Notes: generated by a model from the sequence alone, not told the origin. A stretch of 64,000 nucleotides of DNA from a virus (IMGVR_UViG_3300001869_000005:33973-97972); one strand, 5' to 3'. Positions 388-58,622 are shown, numbered from the stretch's first letter. Numbers and translations are program-made.

Positions 388-613
388 AGTAAGTACATTT
401 AAAACTCTGGGTACTAAATATCCAGAATTCAAAAATCTATCAACAAATCATTTTTCTCAACTTAATAGACTACAGGAGATATATCCAATTGTAAGAACAT
501 TACGAGAAGATTATCCTGCAGCTAAAACTGAATTTTATAATTATCCAACTATTCCCACAAAGGATTTGGGTAAGAAAATATTTGTATTTATTCAAAATAA
601 TTTAACCAATTAA
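380..613 (+). CDS. hypothetical protein (77 aa)
   Basis: ATG overlaps primase end, TAA stop, followed by terminator. Confidence 0.6.
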   Translation: MSKVSTFKTLGTKYPEFKNLSTNHFSQLNRLQEIYPIVRTLREDYPAAKTEFYNYPTIPTKDLGKKIFVFIQNNLTN

Positions 614-622
614 ATAATTTTT

Positions 623-648
623 GGGGAAGATAATCTCTTCCCCTTTTT
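623..648 (+). terminator. intrinsic terminator
   Basis: GGGGAAGA-taatc-TCTTCCCC stem followed by TTTTT. Confidence 0.75.
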
Positions 649-672
649 ATAAACCCTTATAGATTTTTAAAA

Positions 673-1167
673 ATGGATGAAGAACTCGACATTTACAACG
701 AATTAGCAAATCTAAGACCCTTTAAAGGGTCAGAGGATTGTTTAACTCCAGAAGAGTATTTAAAACTATATTTTGACTTAGGAAGACCTGAAACAAAGTT
801 TAGAAATGGCACAATACAATGTTCCAGAGATTGTAACAGAAGCTTTTTTGATTTATACTATCTTACAAAAGCCAAATTCAATGATGTTACATTAGAGGAC
901 GTTGCAAAAATTCTTATTAATTTATGTGAAGATTATGGTAATACGGGCATAAGTGCCTTATTTTGTCCCAATATTGAAAAAGTAGTATTTACTAATTTTT
1001 CGGAAAAAGGTTATGAATTAGAAGACTATAGTTTCTTTTATGACCAAGATTCTCTTATGACTAATGACCGGGATACTGAAAAATATGGTGTTGATAATAT
1101 ATCTTTTTTAGATATAATCTCATTATCTGGTAAAAAAAGAAGGGAAATTATTACTATAATATATTAA
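673..1167 (+). CDS. hypothetical protein, paralog of 1170-1664
   Basis: 164 aa; shares PxKGSE, QC..xNRSFxDLYxLTKAKF and CxNIxK with the next ORF. Confidence 0.75.
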   Translation: MDEELDIYNELANLRPFKGSEDCLTPEEYLKLYFDLGRPETKFRNGTIQCSRDCNRSFFDLYYLTKAKFNDVTLEDVAKILINLCEDYGNTGISALFCPNIEKVVFTNFSEKGYELEDYSFFYDQDSLMTNDRDTEKYGVDNISFLDIISLSGKKRREIITIIY

Positions 1168-1169
1168 TT

Positions 1170-1664
1170 ATGGAAGAAAAACAATTATATGTAATTCCTA
1201 AAGAAATTGAGGATGACTTATCTAGATTAGTTCCTTATAAAGGAAGTGAAGAAATTACTGATCCTATAGAATATATTCTTAATTATATAAACATAGGGGC
1301 ACCTTCAACATTTTACAATGATGGGGAATTACAATGTAGAAGTGGAAGAAACAGAAGTTTCTTGGACTTGTATTTTCTAACTAAGGCAAAATTTCCTGAA
1401 ATTACATTGTCAGAATTTGCTAAAATCTTTTTAGAATTGCACGAGGTTCCCTATGGAAACAGGTTTAAGATTATAGTATATGTATGTGGGAATATCCAAA
1501 AACCCGTATTATATATGGGATATAGCATTTATGGGGGGGCACTAAGTATTTCTACTGTGGAGCATATGGAGAAGTATTTATTCCGTAGTACATATACAGA
1601 TATTACAATAGCACAAATCTTTGATTTAGTTGGATTAGATTATTATCATTTTATAAAAGAATAA
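1170..1664 (+). CDS. hypothetical protein, paralog of 673-1167
   Basis: 164 aa; same motifs as the upstream ORF. Confidence 0.75.
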   Translation: MEEKQLYVIPKEIEDDLSRLVPYKGSEEITDPIEYILNYINIGAPSTFYNDGELQCRSGRNRSFLDLYFLTKAKFPEITLSEFAKIFLELHEVPYGNRFKIIVYVCGNIQKPVLYMGYSIYGGALSISTVEHMEKYLFRSTYTDITIAQIFDLVGLDYYHFIKE

Positions 1665-1666
1665 TT

Positions 1667-2032
1667 ATGTATATTGGAGTTTATGGAACCCTTAAAAAGG
1701 GTCAACACGCAAATTGGATGTTAGCGAACAGTCCTTTTATTGGAGAATTTAGGACAGACATACCTTTTCAAATGTATAATTTAGGGGCATATCCAGCATT
1801 AATCGCAGATGAAGAAAGTCATCCCATTACATTAGAAGTATATGCTGTTACCGATGAAGACATTTTAAATTGTCTTAATACGTATGAAGGATATCCAAGT
1901 CTTTATCAAAAAAGTGAAATCATGGTGGATAAGAAAGAATGGACAGAAGCTATAGAAGTAACAATCTATACTATGAAGAATAACCATAAAGATAGATTTA
2001 TGAGTGTTGTAGAATCTGGTAATTGGAAATAA
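1667..2032 (+). CDS. gamma-glutamylcyclotransferase (GGCT/AIG2-like)
   Basis: VYGTLKKG loop, YPAL, EVY, LNTYEGYP catalytic Glu motif. Confidence 0.9.
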   Translation: MYIGVYGTLKKGQHANWMLANSPFIGEFRTDIPFQMYNLGAYPALIADEESHPITLEVYAVTDEDILNCLNTYEGYPSLYQKSEIMVDKKEWTEAIEVTIYTMKNNHKDRFMSVVESGNWK

Positions 2033-2049
2033 TTTAAAATTAAAAAAAT

Positions 2050-2829
2050 ATGTTCGTACAAATTAGAAGTAAAAATGATACTGCTGCTGCCCTTAGAGGT
2101 AAAGTAGTTACTAGAAAAAGAACAGTACTGCGTTTGGGTAGTAATACCTCAACTGATCAAATCTTTCCAGAAGGAGTTCGTAGAGGTAAAGAAATCGTTG
2201 AAATCAATACAGTTGAAGCGTGTCATAATAGTGGTAACAAAATTACCATGAAACAAATGTTTGATGCTGCTGGAATAATTACTGCAGAATGGAAACCTTT
2301 GAATGAAGTCTTTGAAGAAAATAATGTCATAGATTGGGATCATTTCCCAGCCATCATTAAACACAAAAATTCCAGTAAAGGAAATGGTATTTTCTATATT
2401 GAAGACGGTGATCAATTAAGAACTTTTCAAAATGAACACAACAATCTTTCTAATTACATTATTGAGAAATTTTACAATTATGTAAAAGAATATCGACTCC
2501 ATGTCACAAAAGATGGTTGTTTCTATACATGTCGTAAAATGCTTAGAGATGATGCACAAGAAAGATGGCATCGTCACGACAGTAATTCTGTATGGATTCT
2601 TGAAGAGAATGAATTATTTGATAAACCATCAAATTGGGATGCAATTGTTGCTGAGTGTGTAAAAGCTATGCAATCAGTTGGTCTTGATATCTCCGCAATT
2701 GACATTAAGGTGAATAAACAACGTGAACCTAAATTTATTATTTTGGAGACAAATTCTGGGCCTGCCTTGGCAACTATTACTACAGAAAAATATATCAATA
2801 AATTACAAGAAATCGTAGATGAATTTTGA
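2050..2829 (+). CDS. ATP-grasp amide ligase (RimK-like, phage type)
   Basis: FPAIIK, SKGNGI, IEKF, EYRLHV, AIDI, ILETNSGP motifs. Confidence 0.85.
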   Translation: MFVQIRSKNDTAAALRGKVVTRKRTVLRLGSNTSTDQIFPEGVRRGKEIVEINTVEACHNSGNKITMKQMFDAAGIITAEWKPLNEVFEENNVIDWDHFPAIIKHKNSSKGNGIFYIEDGDQLRTFQNEHNNLSNYIIEKFYNYVKEYRLHVTKDGCFYTCRKMLRDDAQERWHRHDSNSVWILEENELFDKPSNWDAIVAECVKAMQSVGLDISAIDIKVNKQREPKFIILETNSGPALATITTEKYINKLQEIVDEF

Positions 2830-3619
2830 TCAGACTAGAAATTTTTATACTGTATACAAATATAAATTCTTAGATTCAACGGAATGGACTGTTCCTTTAC
2901 AAACTAATTGTTTTGGTACATTTTTTTCAGATACTAAAGTAAAAAATGCTATAGAAACAGAATCTTCAAAAAGTATAGAATTTAATATATTTGTTAACAC
3001 TGACCCTAAAAGTAATACCGCTCTTTGTAATTTATGTTTATTAAACAAAGAAGAAGTTATTAGTTTCCTTGACGAGATTAAACAATGGATAAACTTTTCT
3101 TATACATTAGAATACGAAGAAAAATGTTTTTACATTAATTTAATCACTAGTACTAATCTTCTAGGTAATAAATTACTATTAACTTTAGTAAGATTCTTAT
3201 GGGAAGGTCCTTTTAATATTTGTTTAAAAGAGGCAATAGAGTTAAAAAAAAGAAATTATTTCCCAAAGTTGACTCTTTTGTATACACATCTTTTAGTGCA
3301 AACATCTTTATATAGGGATTGCGCTCAGCCACACGGATTAATTTCTCATCCAACTAAGCCTATTCCAATTTATACAAAGTTAAAGTTAAAAAATAAACTT
3401 AAAATCCCAGCAAACGATCGTAACCCAGTGAATAATTTCTTTAATAATCCTGGAGGAGATTTTACTTTTTATGCAGGAGGATCTTTGTATAAAACAAATA
3501 CCCCCAACAATTTATTTTTAAAAGATGGGAAGTTGGCAATGGAAGATGCAGACATTAGTAGTCGTGTAGAAAATTATCATAATATTAATTATAAAACATT
3601 ATTTGGTGAACAAAAATAA
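2819..3619 (+). CDS. hypothetical protein within amidoligase cluster
   Basis: 266-aa ORF overlapping both neighbours; no recognised motif. Confidence 0.7.
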   Translation: MNFDQTRNFYTVYKYKFLDSTEWTVPLQTNCFGTFFSDTKVKNAIETESSKSIEFNIFVNTDPKSNTALCNLCLLNKEEVISFLDEIKQWINFSYTLEYEEKCFYINLITSTNLLGNKLLLTLVRFLWEGPFNICLKEAIELKKRNYFPKLTLLYTHLLVQTSLYRDCAQPHGLISHPTKPIPIYTKLKLKNKLKIPANDRNPVNNFFNNPGGDFTFYAGGSLYKTNTPNNLFLKDGKLAMEDADISSRVENYHNINYKTLFGEQK

Positions 3620-4253
3620 ATTAAAAGTATATGTTGTTGGACCTTCTACAGGATATGCAAGATTCATTCAGGATTATGTACTAGTTAATAATATGGCTTC
3701 TGCAGATATTATACTATTTACAGGAGGAGCAGATGTGAATCCAAAACTGTATGGGGAAGAAGCTCATCCTACAACATATTTTAATATGGAACGGGATTTA
3801 TTTGAAATACAAGAGTATAAGAAATCTCTAGAAGTGCCTAATGTTTTAAGAGTCGGAATCTGCCGCGGAAATCAGCTCTTGGGTATGTTAAATGGTTGTA
3901 AACTAGTACAAGATGTAACCCATCACGCAATTGGTAAAACCCATAAGGTTATTGTCTATGGAGAAGAGCCGACTATTTTTGATACTACTTCTTTACACCA
4001 TCAAATGGTGTATCCCTATAACATAAACAAAGATGAGTATGATATTTTAGCGGGTTCTTATCCTAAACTATCTGCTCATTATTATGGGGGAGGAATATCC
4101 TGGAAAGACTATTACAAAGAAGTAGAAGTAATCTATTTTCCAAAAACAAATTCTCTTGGAATACAAGGGCATCCGGAAATGATGGACAATTATAGTCCAT
4201 TCGTTAAATATCTTAATTCAATAATTTTATCTAAATTAAATAAAAATGGTTAA
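3603..4253 (+). CDS. class I glutamine amidotransferase-like / peptidase C26 (gamma-glutamyl hydrolase)
   Basis: FTGGADV, GICRG nucleophile elbow, SLHHQ, QGHPE triad; exact start uncertain. Confidence 0.88.
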   Translation: MVNKNKLKVYVVGPSTGYARFIQDYVLVNNMASADIILFTGGADVNPKLYGEEAHPTTYFNMERDLFEIQEYKKSLEVPNVLRVGICRGNQLLGMLNGCKLVQDVTHHAIGKTHKVIVYGEEPTIFDTTSLHHQMVYPYNINKDEYDILAGSYPKLSAHYYGGGISWKDYYKEVEVIYFPKTNSLGIQGHPEMMDNYSPFVKYLNSIILSKLNKNG

Positions 4254-5124
4254 TGTTAATTATATAGATCATGTTACAATTGGATCTGATCCAGAATTAT
4301 TTATTTTTAATAATAAAACAAAAACAGTTGTATCCTCTATTGGATTAATTCCTGGACATAAAAAAGATGCATTTGTTCCAGAAGGATTTCCAGAAGGTTT
4401 TGGTTTACAAACAGATAACATCCTTGGGGAATTTAATATTCCTCCAGTTGTTGTTAATTCTAATCGCCCTGTTGTAGCATTAGAATTTCTTCAGCACATA
4501 AACCGAATGAAGGATTATATCAGGGATTTTGTTAAAATCGTAAATCCAGATTATGACATAAAGTGTAGTGCTTCTGAAATGGTGCCAAATGATCAACTTT
4601 GTAGTGATGAAGCCACTCAGTTCGGATGCGATCCAGATTATAATGTATACACCTTGGGCCAAAATATGGCACCAGAAGGAACTAAAACAAATCTCCGGAG
4701 TACAGGCTGCCACATTCATTGTGGATATAAAAACCCAACGCTACAAACGTCTTTAAGTCTTATAAAAGTATTAGATTTATATCTGGGAGTTCCTTCAGTA
4801 TTAATTGATGCTGATACTAGAAGACGTTCCCTATATGGCAAAGCTGGTTGTTTTAGATTAACAGATTATGGATTAGAATATAGGGTTCTTTCTGGTTATT
4901 TCATAAAAACAGATGAACTTATTAATTGGATGTTTAATCAAACATTACAAGCAATTAATTATTTTAATACTTGTCTGGAACAGGCTTCTTCAGAAGGAAA
5001 TTTAGAAAACTTTAATATTGATTCATATTTACCTTCACAAGGATCAATATTAAATAGTATTAACAATGGTAACAAAATATCAGCAAAAAGATTAATTACA
5101 AAGTATGGTATTGAATTAGTATAA
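4246..5124 (+). CDS. phiEco32-like COOH-NH2 ligase type 2
   Basis: IGSDPELF, DN..EFN, GCDPD, RSTGCHIHCG, RRSLYGKAG.FR, YGLEYRVLS. Confidence 0.9.
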   Translation: MVNVNYIDHVTIGSDPELFIFNNKTKTVVSSIGLIPGHKKDAFVPEGFPEGFGLQTDNILGEFNIPPVVVNSNRPVVALEFLQHINRMKDYIRDFVKIVNPDYDIKCSASEMVPNDQLCSDEATQFGCDPDYNVYTLGQNMAPEGTKTNLRSTGCHIHCGYKNPTLQTSLSLIKVLDLYLGVPSVLIDADTRRRSLYGKAGCFRLTDYGLEYRVLSGYFIKTDELINWMFNQTLQAINYFNTCLEQASSEGNLENFNIDSYLPSQGSILNSINNGNKISAKRLITKYGIELV

Positions 5125-5186
5125 CTACTATTTTATTTACAGATAGTCTTTTTCTTTGAATTATTAATTAAAAAATAAAAAAGTAA

Positions 5187-6710
5187 ATGTTAAATATAAT
5201 TCTTATATCTTTATTAATACACTATATAATTCTATTAATAAAAAAACCTAATTTAAATGTTCTAAATTGTGGAATATTTGGATACGTAGGCATAGAAAGA
5301 CACCTAGATAAGAAAAGTTTTCTTACTCTAGGTTGTGTAAACGATTCTCGTGGGGGCGACTCTACAGGAATTTTTATTGATAGGCAATTTGAATATGGAG
5401 TAGGCCCTAAAAAATACTTTTCTGACTTTTTTCCAGACAGTGAGTTACTTAAAAATACAACCACTGCCAAAATTGCATTAGGGCATTGCAGAAAAGCTTC
5501 TGTAGGAGCCATTAATGCAGACACTGCTCAACCCGTGGTAATAAAAAACAGAGATACTGGGAAACCAGAATTTGTATTACTACATAATGGTACATTATTA
5601 AACCATAAAGAATTAGCTAAAAAATATTTATCTAATACACCAGATACATATACAGATAGTCAAATTATGGCTTATATTATTTACTATAATGGATTCGATG
5701 TTTTAGCAGAATATGAGGGAGCCGGGGTATTTGTAATTGCTGACTATAGAAAAACCCCAAATTCTCCAGACATTTATATGTTTAAGGGAGAATCTTTACA
5801 GTATTCTTACTCTAAGGATATAAGTGAAGAACGACCTATTTATATTTCTATAGAAGATAGAGGTATATGGTTTTCATCAATTCAAGATTTTTTAGAAACC
5901 ACTCGTTATGGGGATGGATTGATACGCACATTAAAAGGTAATCGCCTTTATCATATTAAAAATGGAGAAATAAAATCTCATACTGCATATGATAGAAGTA
6001 CAAGACATCAATCTGCAATAATTCAAACTTATAATACATATGCTCGTCGAGAATTTGAAGATTATGATGAATATTTACCTGCTGCAAAAGCTATAACTGG
6101 CCAAAATAATAGAGGAGCTACTTTTGTTTGCACAGATTATGTTACTCCAACTATTCGTCCAGCAACAAAATTAATTTTTGTAGATGGAAAATATGTAATG
6201 GACAACATAAATGCTCATGGTAAGTATAAATTAAGCGCTTACGGATATCAAACAACCTTTGAATCTGAAACTAATTTGGACTTTTGGTTTTTTGGAGGAG
6301 TATTATTGTATAATGAAAAGTGCTATAAAATTCTCACTGAAATTTTTAACTTGTTCGGGTTAGAAGATGTACAGGATTTTATAGATGGATTCCCAGAGGT
6401 TGTATACCCCTATAGTCCTTTAGTATGTTGGGATATTACGGATAAAAAATATGTAAAGTATGATTCTACAAAATCTGTTTTCTTTACTGGCACTATGGGA
6501 ATAATATTAGATGGAGATGATTGTGAATATACATTTGTTGATGGTAAGTTAATAACAAAAACAACTTATCCATATTCTGCAGATAAATTACAAATATCTC
6601 GATTTAAAAAAGCAGCAGAAAAATTTAAAGATATTAAAGTTGCAGCAGAAGTAAAAGATATCTGTGATTGGTTGGGTTATTTTACCGAAGTTAATAAAGA
6701 AGAAAATTAA
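5187..6710 (+). CDS. class II (Ntn) glutamine amidotransferase with hydrophobic N-terminal extension
   Basis: CGIFG, RGGDSTG, GHCRKAS, HNGT, TDS motifs; catalytic Cys is residue 28. Confidence 0.85.
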   Translation: MLNIILISLLIHYIILLIKKPNLNVLNCGIFGYVGIERHLDKKSFLTLGCVNDSRGGDSTGIFIDRQFEYGVGPKKYFSDFFPDSELLKNTTTAKIALGHCRKASVGAINADTAQPVVIKNRDTGKPEFVLLHNGTLLNHKELAKKYLSNTPDTYTDSQIMAYIIYYNGFDVLAEYEGAGVFVIADYRKTPNSPDIYMFKGESLQYSYSKDISEERPIYISIEDRGIWFSSIQDFLETTRYGDGLIRTLKGNRLYHIKNGEIKSHTAYDRSTRHQSAIIQTYNTYARREFEDYDEYLPAAKAITGQNNRGATFVCTDYVTPTIRPATKLIFVDGKYVMDNINAHGKYKLSAYGYQTTFESETNLDFWFFGGVLLYNEKCYKILTEIFNLFGLEDVQDFIDGFPEVVYPYSPLVCWDITDKKYVKYDSTKSVFFTGTMGIILDGDDCEYTFVDGKLITKTTYPYSADKLQISRFKKAAEKFKDIKVAAEVKDICDWLGYFTEVNKEEN

Positions 6711-6714
6711 ATAT

Positions 6715-8052
6715 ATGGTTGATAATAAAAAACAAACTGTTTTTGATTACGAAAATCAAGAAGAAATTTCTATGGATTCTGCATATGTAAGGCGCTTAAT
6801 TCAAGGAATTGTAGAAATACAGGGAAGAATTCCAAAAATGGGGTATTTCACTCCAAATAGAGCAAAAAACATTGTTGTAGAAGTTAAGGGAGGCACATAT
6901 GTAGCTCTTTCCAAAGATATATTTATTGATAAATTCTTAGTATATAACAATAATACTGGAAAATATGGATATCATATAGGAAAAGATGATTTAAATTACA
7001 TTAAAACTTTTTCTTTACACAAAGGCTCCGGTGATTTTCCTTACAGTTCTATAACAAGAGATTACAATGCTCAAAGAAATTTAGAGAAATTTGCTAGTAC
7101 AGCAAAAGCGTGTCATGTAAATCCTTCTAAATACAAATCCTTAGTCCCTTATACATTTGGATTAGAATATGAAACTTCTGCCGGGTATGTACCAGAAGAA
7201 CTGTGCTATTCAAAAGGATTAATACCTCTAAGAGATGGTTCAATCACAGGAGTTGAATATGCTTCTATAGTAATGAATTCACAAACTGGGTTTGAACTAT
7301 TAAGGGAACAATTGGATGTATTAAAAACTTATACAGAGTATGACAAGGAGTGTTCATTGCATATTCATTTTGGTGGATATCCTGTAGATGAAAAAGCAAT
7401 CACCGTTTTATATTTTATTTTTGAAAGGCTGCAATATGCATTACATCATAATGAAATTGTGCCGCATTACACATTCAGTACTTGCAAATATAAAAGCAGT
7501 GGTAAAGATTATTGTAAAATGCTTCCAGGACGAGATACTTTTAACTCAATTTATGAGTTTTTAAGTGGTGGGGGAACTCCATTTTTAGGAAGTTTTACAA
7601 TACCTCATCCGGGAGATCAACGACATGATACTAAATGGAATATCCATTCGCGGTATTATGCTATGAACCTTATCAATATGTGTTTTTATCAGACTCCTAA
7701 AACAGTAGAAATGCGGTTTTTAAGACCGTCTTATAATTACAACAAAATTGTAAATTGGATCTTTATATTTAGTAGTATATTGCAATTTGCTAATAAATAT
7801 GCTATAGAATCTACAAAAGGTTTAAAATATAATACAATTTACAACAAAATTTGTAATTTATTTGATGGGAGCATTAGTGATTTTGAAAGAATTTTTACAG
7901 AAGTATATCCTTCAGAAATTGTTTCAGAATTAATGAATTTCTTAACAACACTTTCTGCAATTAATCACAAACAGATACAATTAGGAGATTATATTGGCAA
8001 ATTAGACAAATTTGATGATAGTCTAATTACAACTAATGCATTAGAAGTTTGA
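6715..8052 (+). CDS. putative amidoligase (glutamine-synthetase-like fold, Amidoligase_2 type)
   Basis: TFGLEYET, RDGSI.GVEY, SLHIHFG, RYYAMN, TVEMR; ATG at 6715 preferred over 6664. Confidence 0.82.
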   Translation: MVDNKKQTVFDYENQEEISMDSAYVRRLIQGIVEIQGRIPKMGYFTPNRAKNIVVEVKGGTYVALSKDIFIDKFLVYNNNTGKYGYHIGKDDLNYIKTFSLHKGSGDFPYSSITRDYNAQRNLEKFASTAKACHVNPSKYKSLVPYTFGLEYETSAGYVPEELCYSKGLIPLRDGSITGVEYASIVMNSQTGFELLREQLDVLKTYTEYDKECSLHIHFGGYPVDEKAITVLYFIFERLQYALHHNEIVPHYTFSTCKYKSSGKDYCKMLPGRDTFNSIYEFLSGGGTPFLGSFTIPHPGDQRHDTKWNIHSRYYAMNLINMCFYQTPKTVEMRFLRPSYNYNKIVNWIFIFSSILQFANKYAIESTKGLKYNTIYNKICNLFDGSISDFERIFTEVYPSEIVSELMNFLTTLSAINHKQIQLGDYIGKLDKFDDSLITTNALEV

Positions 8053-10564: not shown

Positions 10565-11125
10565 ATGATAGGAAGCGTAATAACTACAATCCTCGTTCTC
10601 AGTGTGTTGTATATGTTTGGAAAGATGTTTGTAAAACATCTCAAAGCAGTAATGAAAGAAGAATTTCAATATTACTTTGGATTTATAAAAAAGAATACAA
10701 CTACTTATCAATATACAGTTTCTTTTAAAGAAGTGTATGAAAAAGATGGCTTAAATTTACCTGTATTAAAGGTAAAAATAGGAAATAAAAAGTGTAATTT
10801 ACTATTAGATAGTGGTGCAAATGTTAATATTTTAAACAAATCTGTTTTTGATGCAGTTAATGTAGAGAATAAATTAGTATTAGAAAATGAAGAAGACCCT
10901 ATAATTTTTGGAGGAGGCTCCTCAAAATCAGATGGTATTGCACAAATACCATTTTCTTATAAAACTATTAAATTCAATGAAACATTTGATGTTATGGATT
11001 TAAGTGAATGTTTTGATAAGGTCTCTCCAAATAATATTACAATAGACGGAGTTTTAGGAAATAAATTCTTTAAAGATAACCAATGGTCTTTGGACTTTGA
11101 TAAAATGATTGTATGGGTGAAATAA
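10565..11125 (+). CDS. membrane-anchored retropepsin-like aspartyl protease
   Basis: N-terminal hydrophobic helix; LLDSGA catalytic motif; DGVLG..F. Confidence 0.8.
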   Translation: MIGSVITTILVLSVLYMFGKMFVKHLKAVMKEEFQYYFGFIKKNTTTYQYTVSFKEVYEKDGLNLPVLKVKIGNKKCNLLLDSGANVNILNKSVFDAVNVENKLVLENEEDPIIFGGGSSKSDGIAQIPFSYKTIKFNETFDVMDLSECFDKVSPNNITIDGVLGNKFFKDNQWSLDFDKMIVWVK

Positions 11126-13466: not shown

Positions 13467-13781
13467 ATGGAAGAAATAATAAAAGAATTAAATAATTTAA
13501 AAATTCTTCAAAAAAGTGGAGAGTGGGTAGAAGATTTACCAGAAGAATTATACGAAAAATATTTTAAACGTAATTGCATTGATGAAGAAATAGACATTGA
13601 GAAACACCGATGGTATGAAACATCTATTTCAGTTTATGATACTTCTAAAGGTTTAATAGGAGTAAGACACGCTTCTCAACTCTACTCAGAATCATCAATG
13701 TGGGAAGATTTAGGATATACTATCAAATTTTTTGAAATGGAGTCATTTGAAATAATCACTTTTAGGAAAAAATATGAGTGA
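13467..13781 (+). CDS. hypothetical protein
   Basis: 104-aa acidic ORF with HRWYE motif. Confidence 0.65.
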   Translation: MEEIIKELNNLKILQKSGEWVEDLPEELYEKYFKRNCIDEEIDIEKHRWYETSISVYDTSKGLIGVRHASQLYSESSMWEDLGYTIKFFEMESFEIITFRKKYE

Positions 13782-14079
13782 AGAAAAATCTATAAGATAC
13801 AACGAGGGCAAACCAAAGTGGAGTCTAGTTCATTACGACTCCCTTATACCAATGATAAGAGTTCTTGAATTTGGAGCTAAAAAATATGCTCCATTCAATT
13901 GGCAAAAAGGATTAGATTTAAAAGAAATTCTTGAATCTATGCAACGCCATCTAGCAAAACTTATGGATAATGAGGAAATAGATACAGAATCTGGAATATC
14001 TCATATGGGTCATATCCAAGCAAATGCAATGTTTTATAATTATCATAAAAATAAAGAAAACATCTTAAAAGATCTATAA
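13774..14079 (+). CDS. dATP/dGTP diphosphohydrolase domain protein (DUF5664-like)
   Basis: YNEGKPKWSL, FGAKKY..NWQKG, RHL, D.ESG..H..H...NAMF. Confidence 0.85.
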   Translation: MSEEKSIRYNEGKPKWSLVHYDSLIPMIRVLEFGAKKYAPFNWQKGLDLKEILESMQRHLAKLMDNEEIDTESGISHMGHIQANAMFYNYHKNKENILKDL

Positions 14080-16128: not shown

Positions 16129-16164
16129 AAAAAGAAGGGTAATTTAATTATTACTCTTCTTTTT
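16129..16164 (+). terminator. intrinsic terminator (possibly bidirectional)
   Basis: AAAAAGAAGGGTAAT-ttaatt-ATTACTCTTCTTTTT inverted repeat. Confidence 0.7.
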
Positions 16165-17520: not shown

Positions 17521-20500
17521 TTAATTCACTTTCAAGAACACCAATGCTTGATCTGGATTAAACACCTTATACAAGGTTCTATTCATTGGAACTGTTTCTA
17601 ACCAGAATTTCTCACCTTTATACATTCCTTTATATCTGCCACTCTAAATTTTATCCCCATAGTTAAAGATATTAAACACTTCTAAGACTCTCTGTACATA
17701 ATCACTTGCCGCAGCAGGAGATTTAACAATAGTCATTAACTACTTAGGTAATAACCAAGTAGGAGTCATAGCGCCAATTTCAGTCTATAAACGCCTCAAT
17801 TCATACTCAGCAAAGTGACTAAACCATGTATCTTCATCTGGCCATTCAACTAATCCAAGAGATAGGGTCAACAATGCAAATGTACCAAGTTCAGTAAAAG
17901 CTCGTTTAATATTACTCTTTTCTAATTTAGATAATTTGCCCCATTCCTCGCTTACAAGTGCAAACTAGAAACCTTTTAAATCTTTAGCAAATGATGCCAT
18001 AAAATTATAAAATGATCTATAATATCCTTCTGTCCAATCTCCTGCCTAATAGTTATATTGGGCTTTACCAGCCCTTCTATTCCAAGCCGCTGGCATCCAC
18101 TTTCTAAACATATAAACTAGTCGCATGATAGCATACTTCTAGCTCATATTCATGTCTTGCTTATTGTAGATTCCCTATAGTGATTGATTTACATATTTAA
18201 TTCTATTATAAATTTCGTCTCTATCTTTATTAGTGAATTCACTTCCGTCTAATTTGGTGTAACCCTTTTTAACAACTAATTTACCACCAAATTTTAAATC
18301 AGTTCCTTTAAATGGAACTACTTCCATTGCATCAATTAAATCTACTTCTTTTCCAGAAGAATCTTTCATTTTAATCTTACTCAACATTGCTAATCCAGAT
18401 ACACTAGACATCTAATGTTCACCAGCACGAGTAAGGAAGAAAAGAGTGCTTGTATTCATAAATCTTGCTAAACCCTTCTGATCCATCTATAATTCGTTGG
18501 CCCTACTTTCTGCATCCTGTGCAATATTGAAGTATTCTATTATAAGTGACAATTTATCTGTTTTAATTCTATTTCCAATATTTCCTAATAGACCCGGTAA
18601 CATCTATGTATATGTCTTATTTGCTTTAGCTAAATCCTTTATGTTGTAGTATTGACCAGAAACCGCTTCAATCATCATCATTACATTACCTGTAGCCATA
18701 TTGGAAGTACCAGCTAATGCATTCAATGCTAAATTATTAAGCGAGGTCATTCTATTTACAAAATCTGCAGTTTTACCTTTATCTATTTTACTATTTCCAA
18801 ATGTACCCTCATCTTCTTTGAATCTACCATAAATCTACATATCCATATAGTCATTGAACTTAGCAAGTGTATTAGAAGCACTCGACTACTTAGTCATTTT
18901 ATTACTAAATTCTCTACCATATCCTTGAATAGTCTACATAACAGGTTTACCGTTTTCAGTTATGTCTACAACTCGCCTTTTCATTACATCTCTGGTTAAT
19001 TCTAAAAGATGTATTGCTGAACTCATTTCATTAAATTCTACAGCCATACTTGCATATGCGGCTAATGAGGAAGTAGCATCTGTAGACAAGTCGTTCATAT
19101 TATCTAGTTTACTTACAAAATAGATTGGTAAAGTCATTACTTTATTACCTTCAAAATCTATAAGATTTGATTTATCCATTAACTATTCACCGCCAAATTC
19201 AATATCTTTTTCTCTCCTATAAAGTAAATCTTTGGCGCTTTCTGTAACTGTATTAAACGCCCCTTTTACAGATTTAGAACCTTTAATTCGTTCAATTAAA
19301 TCTCTACGAATCTATACAGCATTGTAATTGTTTCCAGACCCTTGTGGTAAGAATGAATCCAATTCTTTTTTAATGCGCATAAAATTATCATAATATTCTT
19401 TCTATGCAGCATTTAGTTTATTATATTTATCTGAAGCATATATACTTCTGTCGGGTAGACTATTTTCATCAACCGTTTCTGTATTAGCCTAATACCAATC
19501 ATATAAATCTTTCTATCTAGCTTCCCACTATTCTTGAGTAGGATGTAATCCATATTTAACATCAAGTCTTTTTCTCTCCGCATCTTTGGCCATTTCAAAG
19601 GCAGTATAATCTAATTCAGCAATGTATTTGCCAGTCAAATTACCATCCTTATCTCTATCATGCATAAAATCTGTGTTTTTGAATCCTTTAGATTCTAACA
19701 CTGCTTGCATTGATTGTAATTCTTTAATGTAATCTAATGTCCTTCTAATAGAATTCTATTTAAATGAATCAACACTGTGATTAAACAGCCTTAACATCTA
19801 ATCAGATGAATCGGCCATAGAGTCCATCCATCTGTCAAAGAAACCAATATCCTATGAGGAGTGGTCTAACAGTTCTTCTAAAGTAATAGTTTGTCCTTTT
19901 AACTTACCCATCTTCATTACTAAAGAGTCCCCTACAAAGGGTCTAAAAAAGTCTAATGCTAATGCATAACTAATATCCTTATACTATACATCTAATGCTA
20001 TACATAAGTCTGACAATTCTGATAAATTCCTCTTTAATTCATCTGGAAACTATTTAGTATCTTCCAAAGTATCTCTAGCAGCCTCATCTCTTAACTCTTT
20101 TACACTTTGACCATAAGATGCTGTAAAATTCTTAATAGTTCTTAACATACCCGCCATCTAATTTGTGGTTGTAGCACCACTAGTACCATCCTACATTTTA
20201 ACAAACGTAGCCTAATGAGACTTCAATTCAGTCGCAGCATTGGTAATAAACATATTTATACCATTGATAAATTGACCTTTTTCAATCTCATCATTTAATC
20301 CATTTATATAATCAGTGTTTAATTCCTCTACAATACCATGAATTTCCCTTTTTTCTGCAATCTTTTTCTATTTAATCTTATTCTAAATGATTGTAGTGAG
20401 AATTTCTTTCTATTTCTCCACCCTATCTTCTAGGGCAAATAATTTAGTTCTATTTCTCTATAGATTCTTTATATCAATCTAATCTGCAACTCTATTAGCT

Positions 20501-56123: not shown

Positions 56124-58622
56124 TTATTTTAAGTATTTGACATGAATCTTAACCGTGTCACCGGAATAAAATCCGTCTAAATTATTTGTGACAGTTATCG
56201 TAGATCCTGTATACACCCAGCTACAGTTGTTTGCAGATCCGGGGTATTGCTCCCCGTATAAATTCCCTCCAGAAGCGAGAACGCTTATTGCGATAGATAC
56301 AATATTTGCTTTTGTGGCCTTTGACCAAGATGCGGAAACAGACATGGTTTCATCAGTCATAACATCTATATAAACGTAGTCATCAGCCATCGACTCATTT
56401 CCATCAGTAGAAAGCGCCAAAGCGCTTACTACCGTATCAGCAACATCAGCATAAGCTGAAATACCTCCTGTAGCGTAAAGATTACCAGCTACACGAACAT
56501 TGCCGTAATCGTCTATTGTTATAGCAGCAGATAAATTTGAAGCGTTTCTTAAAGTAAGGTCTGTTATTATAGCACCGTTCGGGAATGAGGGTATTCCCGT
56601 TGAAACTGGCACTTGGATAGCCCCGGAAGCATAAACGAAGTTCTCAAAACTTCCATTTCCATCATCACCAAACATCCCACCTATCATTCTACCCTGCATG
56701 GTGTCGTACATTCCTATCTCATAGCCATCAAATAAAGCCCAGTTGGCAAAAACAATTCCCCCATCGTTAGGTGAAATAGAATTTATAGCATGGCTGTAAT
56801 TTGAAGTTATTGAGCCACCAAAATACCCAGTGCCAAAACCATCAACATAACATTTTTGAACTCCGTTAGCTCGTAAATCCAAGAACTTAAAAGCACTGGT
56901 TGCAGGTCTGTCTGTATAGCCATAAAACAAAGAATTATTGAATGCTGCATTAGTGTTATGAAGAGTAAATGCGGTTGAAGATTGTAAACTTCCGGTAACC
57001 CTGAAGCGACCTGCAACATCAAGCTCAACACCTGGATTAATTATTCCAATTCCGACGTTACCGTTGATTGTTGTATTCCCCGTCCCACTTACGATGAGAT
57101 TGCCAGCAAGTATAGCATTAGAAGCATTATCAATGGATAATGCAATATCCGAAGCAGACCTATAAAATTGTAAAACATTAAGACCATTATTACTGATTTC
57201 CCACGAACCGGTCGTGCCTGTCAGTCTTACCGAAGCATTGCCAGTAGCATCTACACCTGATATTTGCAATACTTTACCAAATCCAGGCATACTTCCAGGC
57301 ACTGTCGTCCCGATGCCTACGTTGCCGTTTGATTGTTTTATTGTAACTACATTAGGAGTACCTACCCATCCGATTCTCCAATCATCAGTAGTTGGATCAA
57401 GTGCCATCCTGCCATTATCCGCCGTGTTTCCGAGTATATTTAATGATGAACTGTTTTTAATTGTTAAATTTCCACCTACACTAAAATTTGTCCCATCCGT
57501 CCATATCCCACTATTTGCTAATCCGCCCAATGTATGGTAGGGCAGATAGCCTGCGGTGAGGTTGGATAGTTTGGCGGTAGTGGCGGTGACTGTTCCTGAA
57601 AATATAGCTGATGAATTTGAGAACCTAAAGGGAAGTTGCGACTTGGTTACATCATAAAACCCGAAGTAGTCATCATCTCCCATTCCAATACCTTGCCCAA
57701 AAACCCAACTTCTACCAATACTATTTGATATAAAGGCATTTTGAGTTCCTGAATTATAATTAGAGGTTATCCCTCCTGTTGCGGAAACGGTGGAAGAGAA
57801 GGACGAAGAACCATCAGCATTAATTTTAAATACATCATAATGTCCATTGGTGCTAAAACCTACCCACCCATCATTTGCTTGAATAATAGCAAAGGCCTTA
57901 CTCCAATCTGTCGCTAAAGTTCTATTTTGCAGCTGTAGATTAAAATAATTTTGTGCTGGACTTTCGCCCCTTATGGCTGTACCATTGTTATTTAATGCAT
58001 TAACTTGAGTGGCATACAAGTTCTTTGCATTCCAGTCTACGGTACTAAGATTCGAGTTTCCTGAATCCCATATTTTTCTCCACGAATCGAATGTTGTCCC
58101 GCCGTAAAAACTTCTCCAGTATTTATCATGCGCGACGCCGGCGAGTGAGGTGAACTCCTGTTCGAACCAATCGGAAGAATACACGTTCTGTTTCAAAATG
58201 CCAATACTATTAACTGGTATATTAGCCCAGTAGTAGTCCATCTTAATAAATGAATTCGCGTCTGTCGGACGTGTATTGGCATCGTAACCTGCCCCCCAAG
58301 TATGTGTCACCAAAGGAAAATTTTCCGGGTTCAGGTTTCCCGCGTGCCATACCCCATAAGAGTTAACGGTAAGACCTCCTGTGAAATTCTTTTCCCCTGT
58401 TATGGTCTGTACAGTATCAGAATATACAAGCGTTGAAGGTTTGTTTAGTATATGAGACCAATCATTCAGAGTAATAATAGTATTTGCTGCATTTTTAATA
58501 AATAGACTTTCATATCCTGTAGCATAATTTAAAGCCAATTCCCCATACACCATTGTTACTGGGGCAGAGGGAACTTGACTTACTACGGTTGTAGAATTTC
58601 TTACTTTTATGGTATTACTCAT
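56124..58622 (-). CDS. tail fibre / receptor-binding protein (832 aa, no TAG)
   Basis: YGELALNY N-terminal domain, WRKIWDSGN, GNVGIGT repeats, GNLYATGGISAY. Confidence 0.85.
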   Translation of the reverse strand: MSNTIKVRNSTTVVSQVPSAPVTMVYGELALNYATGYESLFIKNAANTIITLNDWSHILNKPSTLVYSDTVQTITGEKNFTGGLTVNSYGVWHAGNLNPENFPLVTHTWGAGYDANTRPTDANSFIKMDYYWANIPVNSIGILKQNVYSSDWFEQEFTSLAGVAHDKYWRSFYGGTTFDSWRKIWDSGNSNLSTVDWNAKNLYATQVNALNNNGTAIRGESPAQNYFNLQLQNRTLATDWSKAFAIIQANDGWVGFSTNGHYDVFKINADGSSSFSSTVSATGGITSNYNSGTQNAFISNSIGRSWVFGQGIGMGDDDYFGFYDVTKSQLPFRFSNSSAIFSGTVTATTAKLSNLTAGYLPYHTLGGLANSGIWTDGTNFSVGGNLTIKNSSSLNILGNTADNGRMALDPTTDDWRIGWVGTPNVVTIKQSNGNVGIGTTVPGSMPGFGKVLQISGVDATGNASVRLTGTTGSWEISNNGLNVLQFYRSASDIALSIDNASNAILAGNLIVSGTGNTTINGNVGIGIINPGVELDVAGRFRVTGSLQSSTAFTLHNTNAAFNNSLFYGYTDRPATSAFKFLDLRANGVQKCYVDGFGTGYFGGSITSNYSHAINSISPNDGGIVFANWALFDGYEIGMYDTMQGRMIGGMFGDDGNGSFENFVYASGAIQVPVSTGIPSFPNGAIITDLTLRNASNLSAAITIDDYGNVRVAGNLYATGGISAYADVADTVVSALALSTDGNESMADDYVYIDVMTDETMSVSASWSKATKANIVSIAISVLASGGNLYGEQYPGSANNCSWVYTGSTITVTNNLDGFYSGDTVKIHVKYLK

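Follow-up and report, generated by a model that had tools for sequence, protein, structure and literature searches.

The question raised by the stretch of viral DNA analysed here (IMGVR_UViG_3300001869_000005:33973-97972; 64,000 nucleotides, hereafter the window) is what a compact block of amide-bond enzymes encoded in it makes. It makes up the right-hand 64 kb of a 97,972-bp virus record, complete according to CheckV, from a gut crAss-like phage whose closest named genome is that of crAss-like phage cr108_1 (Steigviridae, Asinivirinae), with which it shares 69% DNA identity and synteny. Seven tightly packed, co-directional open reading frames (ORFs) occupy positions 1667-8052 of the plus strand, and an original prediction, made from the DNA itself, had read them as a complete set of enzymes for writing and erasing amide bonds. 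We identify the cluster as the crAss-phage copy of the phiEco32-type amidoligase cassette, and hence as nothing new in kind. The best explanation of the observations below is that its seven genes form one functional module, and, arguing by analogy with known pathways, we tentatively favour the reading that a short amide or peptide containing glutamate is built by this module on an acceptor other than protein, in the host cytoplasm, and then trimmed.

Families were assigned by profile searches against Pfam, PHROGs and NCBIfam, and the conservation of catalytic residues was scored on aligned relatives from 80 IMG/VR loci; in all six enzyme families these residues are at least 90% conserved or invariant. 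The first gene (1667-2032, 121 amino acids) encodes a GGACT/AIG2-like gamma-glutamylamine cyclotransferase (PF06094, 5e-19; PHROG 2520, 2e-23), in which Y6, G7 and E74 are invariant across 14 relatives. It is followed by a RimK-like ATP-grasp amino-acid ligase (2050-2829, 259 amino acids; Pfam RimK, 1.5e-5; PHROG 2599, 5e-33) that also matches the NCBIfam family rimK_fam below cut-off (2.8e-10), conserves K104, E147, R149, D218, E233 and N235, and is encoded by a segment with 69% DNA identity to the ATP-grasp gene of cr108_1. The third gene (2819-3619, 266 amino acids) overlaps both of its neighbours, and its product, which we call unk266, has no sequence match in Pfam, PHROGs, NCBIfam or the PDB. 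Next comes a class I glutamine amidotransferase (GATase) or peptidase C26-type thiol amidohydrolase, here GAT1 (3603-4253, 216 amino acids; Peptidase_C26, 4.9e-14; PHROG 7218, 2.6e-33), with a Cys-His-Glu triad on a GATase fold (C87 conserved in at least 90% and H190 and E192 in all of 66 relatives); its closest solved chain is Lin1909 (3fij, 3e-7), and it has a weak NCBIfam match to gamma-glutamyl-CDP-amidate hydrolase (0.002). The fifth gene (4246-5124, 292 amino acids) specifies a phiEco32-like COOH-NH2 ligase type 2, a GCS/GS-like carboxylate-amine ligase, which scores 45.2 bits against the 25-bit cut-off of PF14395 (9e-12; PHROG 3815, 5e-59) and conserves E17, E62, H156, H158, R193, R194, E211 and R213, the alignment of its relatives holding about 60 invariant columns. 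The sixth product is a class II (Ntn) glutamine amidotransferase, GAT-II (5187-6710, 507 amino acids; Pfam GATase_6, 4e-12), with an invariant C28 and with R55, N134, G135 and D157 at least 90% conserved or invariant.

The last gene encodes an Amidoligase_2 protein, a GS-like carboxylate-amine ligase (6715-8052, 445 amino acids; PHROG 2443, 8e-13), which most likely starts at the ATG at 6715, just past the GAT-II stop, and not at the GTG at 6664. The window protein itself reaches 21.1 bits for PF12224, just below the 22-bit cut-off, and 35 of its 36 aligned relatives match that family, the best at 6.5e-15. E151, E153, D174, E181, H216, H218 and R313, among them the E-x-E, H-x-H and R motifs, are invariant, E332 and R334 are conserved in at least 90%, and the N-terminal 150 or so residues fall outside the recognised family. 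Sequence searches of the PDB with the profiles of the two GS-like families, COOH-NH2 ligase and amidoligase, found no solved structure, and the rows for HIV reverse transcriptase in these searches (E about 0.1) were discarded as noise. The seven identities and coordinates given in the original prediction are confirmed by these searches, which are the profile check it had called for, and its tally of three ligases from two folds, two enzymes hydrolysing glutamine or gamma-glutamyl amides and one cyclotransferase is borne out by the profile matches, as is its statement that the catalytic motifs are intact by the conserved residues. The genes overlap or lie 2-62 nt apart (gaps from -17 to +62 nt). 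No convincing terminator was found within the cluster, the best hairpins with T-runs flanking the block at 623-643 and 16129-16164; a scan for sigma-70 promoters was uninformative (100 sites against 102 expected).

Is this grouping more than accidental? When IMG/VR was scanned by alignment with the COOH-NH2 ligase as query, 451 stretches were returned, of which 80 loci were kept; together with cr108_1 these make a set of 81 cassette loci, which come from crAss-size and larger viral contigs. Neighbouring genes were counted in this set with tblastn and unk266 with an iterative hidden Markov model (HMM) search. GAT-II is present in 77 loci, GAT1 in 75, the amidoligase in 74, unk266 in 69, the ATP-grasp ligase in 57 and GGACT in 16, and in 71-77 of the 81 the genes follow one another as GAT1, COOH-NH2 ligase, GAT-II, amidoligase. 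We class GAT1, the COOH-NH2 ligase and the amidoligase as core parts, ATP-grasp as a frequent one and GGACT as accessory. The original prediction had named a lack of co-conservation in advance as grounds for giving it up; this fixed order is the reverse of that, and the cluster is far from a chance grouping. The COOH-NH2 ligase has 2365 relatives at E<=1e-5 in a metagenome protein set and occurs in 303 GenBank phage records, mostly of Pseudomonas and Escherichia phages. Kuravirus SU10, Vicosavirus UFV-P2, Krylovvirus tf, Lahexavirus 4_4572 and Cellulophaga phage phi14:2 carry the same set of components in another order, and the survival of the set through rearrangement argues for one pathway. 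Single adjacencies are kept as well, namely GGACT next to ATP-grasp and COOH-NH2 ligase next to GAT-II in phi14:2, and ATP-grasp next to GGCT in UFV-P2. The kinship with clusters of phiEco32-like phages that had been proposed for the window is therefore real, SU10, UFV-P2, tf and 4_4572 all having the set.

The phiEco32-type amidoligase cassette is said to have been first described by Iyer et al. in 2009 (Mol Biosyst), and the name and idea of a "peptidoglycan modification cassette" reportedly go back to Hardies 2013. Later papers describe under that name a seven-gene cassette of RIO-1-like, phiEco32-like and LUZ24-like podoviruses (PMC5498523), and propose that it changes the cell surface against superinfection or prepares lysis (PMC5498523; PMC11945000, citing Hardies 2013; PMC10580990, citing Iyer 2009). 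The original prediction, which inferred a glutamyl or peptide tag on an envelope component (or on a protein or metabolite) that would serve superinfection exclusion or anti-defence, repeats a hypothesis already published for the same cassette; it was right that no product is established, these papers giving neither an enzyme assay nor a product and the literature searched having yielded no functional study. Shared with the phiEco32-type cassette are the COOH-NH2 ligase type 2, Amidoligase_2, the Ntn GAT-II, ATP-grasp, GGCT and the placement among early or replication genes. The gene order differs, and the crAss-type version has two additions, the C26 class I GATase and unk266 in single or double copy, in place of which proteobacterial cassettes carry phrog_4877 and two other uncharacterised proteins. 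Nor is the window copy the first in Crassvirales, the cassette being already annotated in the crAss-like phages cr108_1 and phi14:2. In cr108_1 (NC_055878) the full crAss-type set occupies the corresponding primase-UDG slot in the same orientation, at 38-58% protein identity, but with two copies of unk266 and no adjacent GGACT; phi14:2 (NC_021806) has GGCT, ATP-grasp, COOH-NH2 ligase, GAT-II and amidoligase in that slot and orientation, and differs in having neither unk266 nor GAT1. Compared with both, the window phage has a leader on its GAT-II and two additional paralogous genes.

What such a set of enzymes could do together is suggested by three pathways in which an amine temporarily receives a glutamate as a handle, to be removed again later. 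In putrescine utilisation the GS-like ligase PuuA works with the C26 hydrolase PuuD; in ergothioneine synthesis the GCS-type ligase EgtA is joined by the Ntn amidohydrolase EgtC; and in butirosin synthesis the ATP-grasp ligase BtrJ has as its partner the AIG2-like cyclotransferase BtrG. Each of these pairs combines one ligase type found in the cassette with one amide-cleaving type found in it, a likeness at the level of fold and family for which no orthology is claimed, and it is this match of every ligase type with a known hydrolase partner, with glutamate as the removable handle, that leads us to favour a line of amide assembly and trimming. From the observed identities, catalytic residues, co-conservation and gene order we infer which substrates it uses, which writer goes with which eraser, what the acceptor is and what purpose the line serves, as follows. 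The three ATP-dependent carboxylate-amine ligases (RimK-like ATP-grasp, GCS-like COOH-NH2 ligase and GS-like Amidoligase_2) would form glutamate amide bonds; the C26/class I GATase, the EgtC-like GAT-II, in which no synthase domain was recognised, and GGACT would undo gamma-glutamyl or glutamine amides; the acceptor would be an amine-bearing metabolite or a cell-wall precursor peptide; unk266, with its conserved Cys, Arg and Glu, might carry out the single step left unexplained by the known enzymes; and expression would proceed from the TAG-free early/replication strand. Adjacency backs two of the pairs, GGACT standing beside ATP-grasp and the COOH-NH2 ligase beside GAT-II in both the window and phi14:2, and the C26 gamma-glutamyl-hydrolase type of GAT1 counts in the same direction, as does the fact that GGACT enzymes act on free gamma-glutamyl-amines. 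The known pathways of transient gamma-glutamylation differ in having oxidases, methyltransferases, carrier proteins or acyltransferases between writing and erasing, whereas the sole candidate for an intermediate step in the cassette is unk266.

Whether GAT-II is an eraser or the glutaminase of a synthase bears directly on this reading. Modelled with AlphaFold2 (AF2; pLDDT 86), it has a 27-residue hydrophobic leader (5187-5267), then an Ntn domain that begins at Cys28 and ends near residue 282, and, beyond a disordered linker, a C-terminal domain (about 6108-6707) of some 200 well-modelled residues. In VIA comparisons the Z-scores were 22.3 for PurF, 22.0 for GlmS, 20.5 for AsnB and 20.1 for the stand-alone gamma-glutamyl amidohydrolase EgtC (rmsd 2.5 over 201 aligned residues), so that EgtC scores about equally with the synthases, and all of these matches are confined to residues 28 to about 325. 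With the full-length model as query (the C-terminal domain was not folded alone), the alignments to PurF, GlmS, AsnB and TsnB9 end at residue 283-325 or thereabouts. The C-terminal domain gave no match or lead in a profile search of the PDB or in the ESM Atlas, and it is poorly conserved, keeping only Gly and aromatic residues and no conserved polar ones, a pattern more in keeping with a docking or binding domain, or with a part in hydrolysis, than with a synthase domain. The leader is unusual in that 35 of 42 GAT-II homologues begin directly with MC; the other seven carry an extension ahead of the Cys, six of them of 23-30 residues. Hydrophobic leaders occur in the window protein, in its close relatives at loci L003 and L005, and also at L046, L059 and L077, while the 23-residue leader at L081 is basic and the extension at L041 has 12 residues and is not hydrophobic. 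It must be assumed that the window GAT-II needs to lose its leader to be active.

The leader is also where the published idea of cell-wall remodelling touches our data. According to it, unusual amide linkages of peptidoglycan stem peptides or cytoplasmic precursors would be made or edited, possibly by amidating carboxylates with glutamine-derived ammonia, and so block superinfection or prepare lysis. A hydrophobic leader of 23-30 residues, present in six homologues including that of the window, could bring the enzyme to the membrane, the site of lipid II, but an Ntn enzyme must shed such a leader to be active and so would leave the membrane again. Most of the named GenBank carriers infect diderm hosts, and a ligase paired with a GATase does amidate peptidoglycan in the case of MurT/GatD (PMC3267633), where, as here, an ATP-dependent ligase is encoded beside a glutamine amidotransferase. 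However, MurT has a Mur-ligase fold and GatD is a CobQ-type GATase, and neither family appeared among the Pfam and NCBIfam matches of the cassette; those matches likewise include no signal peptides and no peptidoglycan-binding domains for any cassette protein. Given this, we regard cell-wall remodelling, so far hypothetical in the literature too, as an unlikely account of the cassette as a whole, with the proviso that it overlaps the amide assembly we favour, a cell-wall precursor being one of the possible non-protein acceptors.

The component with no assigned chemistry, unk266, is a large, previously unannotated family that we define here as part of the crAss-type cassette. In the 69 loci that have it, its gene closely precedes that of GAT1 (median gap 6 nt) and never occurs without it, and 24 loci hold two tandem copies. 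A search with its profile of 1.84 billion representative proteins gave 733 clusters at E<=0.001. Across 182 sequences C31, F32, N71, R125 and E129 are conserved at 94-99% and C73, H172 and Y253 at 84-91%, with a C-terminus that varies across relatives; this pattern of conservation suggests an enzyme or a metal site and not a passive substrate. A fairly confident AF2 model was obtained (pLDDT 79, pTM 0.84), and with it Foldseek found nothing in the PDB at E<=0.001, a wide VIA search gave generic ferredoxin/ACT-like matches alone (best Z 5.9), and the ESM Atlas held nothing usable, its ankyrin-like feature matches having few shared features. Significant matches in BFVD were the two cr108_1 proteins encoded between ATP-grasp and GAT1 (5e-9) and two proteins of another crAss-like virus. 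Weaker BFVD matches (E 1e-3 to 1e-1) were uncharacterised proteins of the phages 4_4572, PaP4, tf, GAP52, CW02 and LAh_6, of which we found the cassette in 4_4572, PaP4 and tf, and CW02 is described as carrying it (PMC5498523). The tf match has 307 residues, the length of tf_18, whose gene lies directly upstream of the tf COOH-NH2 ligase, and when hhalign was run against single sequences the two signature motifs of unk266 lined up, not significantly, with UFV-P2 gp19 and gp20. HMM searches of unk266 against proteins of LUZ24-like and Kuravirus cassettes were negative. A component resembling unk266 and common to proteobacterial cassettes may be entertained as a lead only.

The main rival to amide assembly is protein or peptide tagging, in which the ligases would put glutamate or a short peptide on side chains or C-termini of host or phage proteins, the mark being taken off again or recycled by the thiol amidohydrolases and GGACT. 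RimK itself acts on ribosomal protein S6, and it is to RimK-type protein glutamate ligases that the ATP-grasp enzyme of the cassette is nearest; in pupylation, pairs of a GS-like ligase and a deamidase tag proteins, the GS-like PafA working with Pup; and the classical substrate of GGACT is the epsilon-(gamma-glutamyl)-lysine released from isopeptide-linked proteins. Characterised C26, Ntn-GAT and GGACT enzymes, on the other hand, use small substrates, the C-terminus of unk266 is not conserved, and no small tag protein or conserved acceptor is visible, no systematic search for a tag ORF having been made. Tagging also gains from the primase-UDG slot itself, which is variable in Asinivirinae. In PhiCrAss001 (NC_049977; 1774-6993 of L086, corresponding to 388-8048 of the window) it holds the genes for Gp79, Gp78, Gp77, Gp76 and Gp75, of which Gp76 is a ThiF (E1-like) protein (8e-16), Gp77 a weak Prok-JAB match (20.4 bits) and the other three are uncharacterised. 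Neither the genome of the window nor any of the 81 cassette loci was found to contain one of these five genes, and ThiF in particular is missing from the former. A toolkit of the ThiF/Prok-JAB protein-conjugation type in the same slot suggests interchangeable modules, but the shared position may merely mark a hotspot for accessory genes. Weighing these points, we rate tagging as possible though on balance doubtful; the more specific proposal that the crAss-type cassette, unk266 included, is a non-ubiquitin protein- or peptide-tagging system exchanged with the ThiF/JAB cassette for the same task of host takeover we hold to be improbable.

Several observations weigh against amide assembly on a non-protein acceptor, beginning with the E1-like/JAB cassette of PhiCrAss001, which would sit better with the tagging of proteins or peptides than with a metabolite. 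The cassette contains no tailoring enzyme, transporter or carrier protein, which leaves its net chemistry undefined, and the fold of unk266 gives no functional clue. By analogy with MurT/GatD, both GATases could supply ammonia to neighbouring ligases for carboxylate amidation instead of removing glutamate. The symmetry of three writer-eraser pairs is not universal either, since GGACT adjoins the cassette in 16 of the 81 loci and ATP-grasp in 57. Finally, the literature searched contains no experiment on any cassette member.

The genomic setting of the cassette bears on two further explanations and on its expression. In the plus-strand block from 1 to 17.5 kb the cassette is accompanied by the end of a primase gene and by genes for UDG, a resolvase-like protein, an exonuclease, PolA and proteins of nucleotide metabolism, the last including a dGTP_diPhyd_N protein and a ThyX-like ORF. 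Such surroundings would suit the hypermodification of nucleic acids, in which a DNA or tRNA base or a nucleotide precursor is decorated with an amino-acid-derived group, and GATase fusions do act in the deazaguanine DNA modification of other phages. No base-hydroxymethylase, kinase, glycosylase-like transferase or DpdA-type enzyme lies beside the cassette in the genomes inspected, however, among them cr108_1, SU10, UFV-P2 and phi14:2, and accessory genes often sit in podovirus replication modules (PMC5498523), so that we consider this explanation very unlikely. Still less probable, in our view, is that the genes are auxiliary to nitrogen metabolism, raising the turnover of glutamine and glutamate or the supply of amino acids. 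This has been claimed for phage ZRK32, which has the same genes (PMC10945688) and is among the tblastn matches, but effects on growth, and no enzyme data, underlie the claim; none of the ligases is orthologous to GlnA or GshA/B or matched an NCBIfam equivalog, and a conserved set of five to seven enzymes with an uncharacterised family and two non-canonical ligases far exceeds what bulk glutamine metabolism would need. Both hypermodification and bulk nitrogen metabolism are thus less likely than amide assembly or tagging.

With respect to expression, the original prediction had noted that the cluster is written free of TAG and can therefore be expressed before the code switch. The first part is correct but not specific to the cluster: between 7 and 17479 none of the 23 plus-strand genes contains an in-frame TAG, their stop codons all being TAA or TGA, so that the feature characterises the entire early/replication strand and was not designed into the cassette in particular. 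The late genes on the minus strand need TAG to be read as glutamine, as illustrated by a 2314-residue ORF with 51 in-frame TAGs and by the major head protein, which is readable only in this way (phrog_11589, 3e-115). Outside the window, at genome positions 7782-7857 (minus strand), ARAGORN finds a tRNA with anticodon CTA, which likely serves as amber suppressor for the late genes and adjoins a tRNA-Met. The idea that the cassette is itself tied to TAG recoding, for example through charging of the suppressor tRNA, was rejected, the same cassette occurring in lineages and hosts with no known recoding. A tmRNA-like ARAGORN call at genome positions 19003-19377 (plus strand) could be spurious or mark a structured RNA of the phage. 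Among late-strand genes, an 832-residue ORF at 56124-58622 (minus strand) has no in-frame TAG while its neighbours need TAG as glutamine; it matches no PHROG, and its region is the most GC-rich of the window (0.40 against about 0.31).

Other features of the early strand can be described briefly. Directly upstream of GGACT lie two tandem ORFs encoding 164 amino acids each (673-1167 and 1170-1664, plus strand), whose products are 44% identical to each other (3e-27) and belong to no Pfam or PHROG family. Relatives of these ORFs accompany GGACT upstream of the cassette in six loci (L003-L005, L040, L057 and L059), and they may be accessory members of the cassette, although this is uncertain. Further downstream, a 186-residue ORF at 10565-11125 weakly matches aspartyl proteases of retroviral type (Asp_protease_2, 5.5e-4, below cut-off) and lies just upstream of the DNA polymerase gene, like the "aspartyl protease" Gp66 of PhiCrAss001. 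The dGTP_diPhyd_N protein is a stand-alone 101-residue product (13774-14079) corresponding to the N-terminal domain of dATP/dGTP diphosphohydrolases (PF18909, 1.3e-24), with no MazG domain attached.

The cassette is among the most widespread multi-enzyme modules of virulent phages for which no product has been identified. Among the phages that carry it are therapeutic ones of Pseudomonas and E. coli and the abundant crAss-like phages of the gut, and it proves to be common in gut phage genomes of crAss size too. The window leaves this general picture unchanged and adds to it unk266 as a conserved family of the crAss-type version. In addition, the occurrence of an amidoligase cassette in some phages and an E1/JAB cassette in another at the same slot offers a comparison able to guide experiments, and the identity of the product would explain a conserved early step of infection across many phage lineages.

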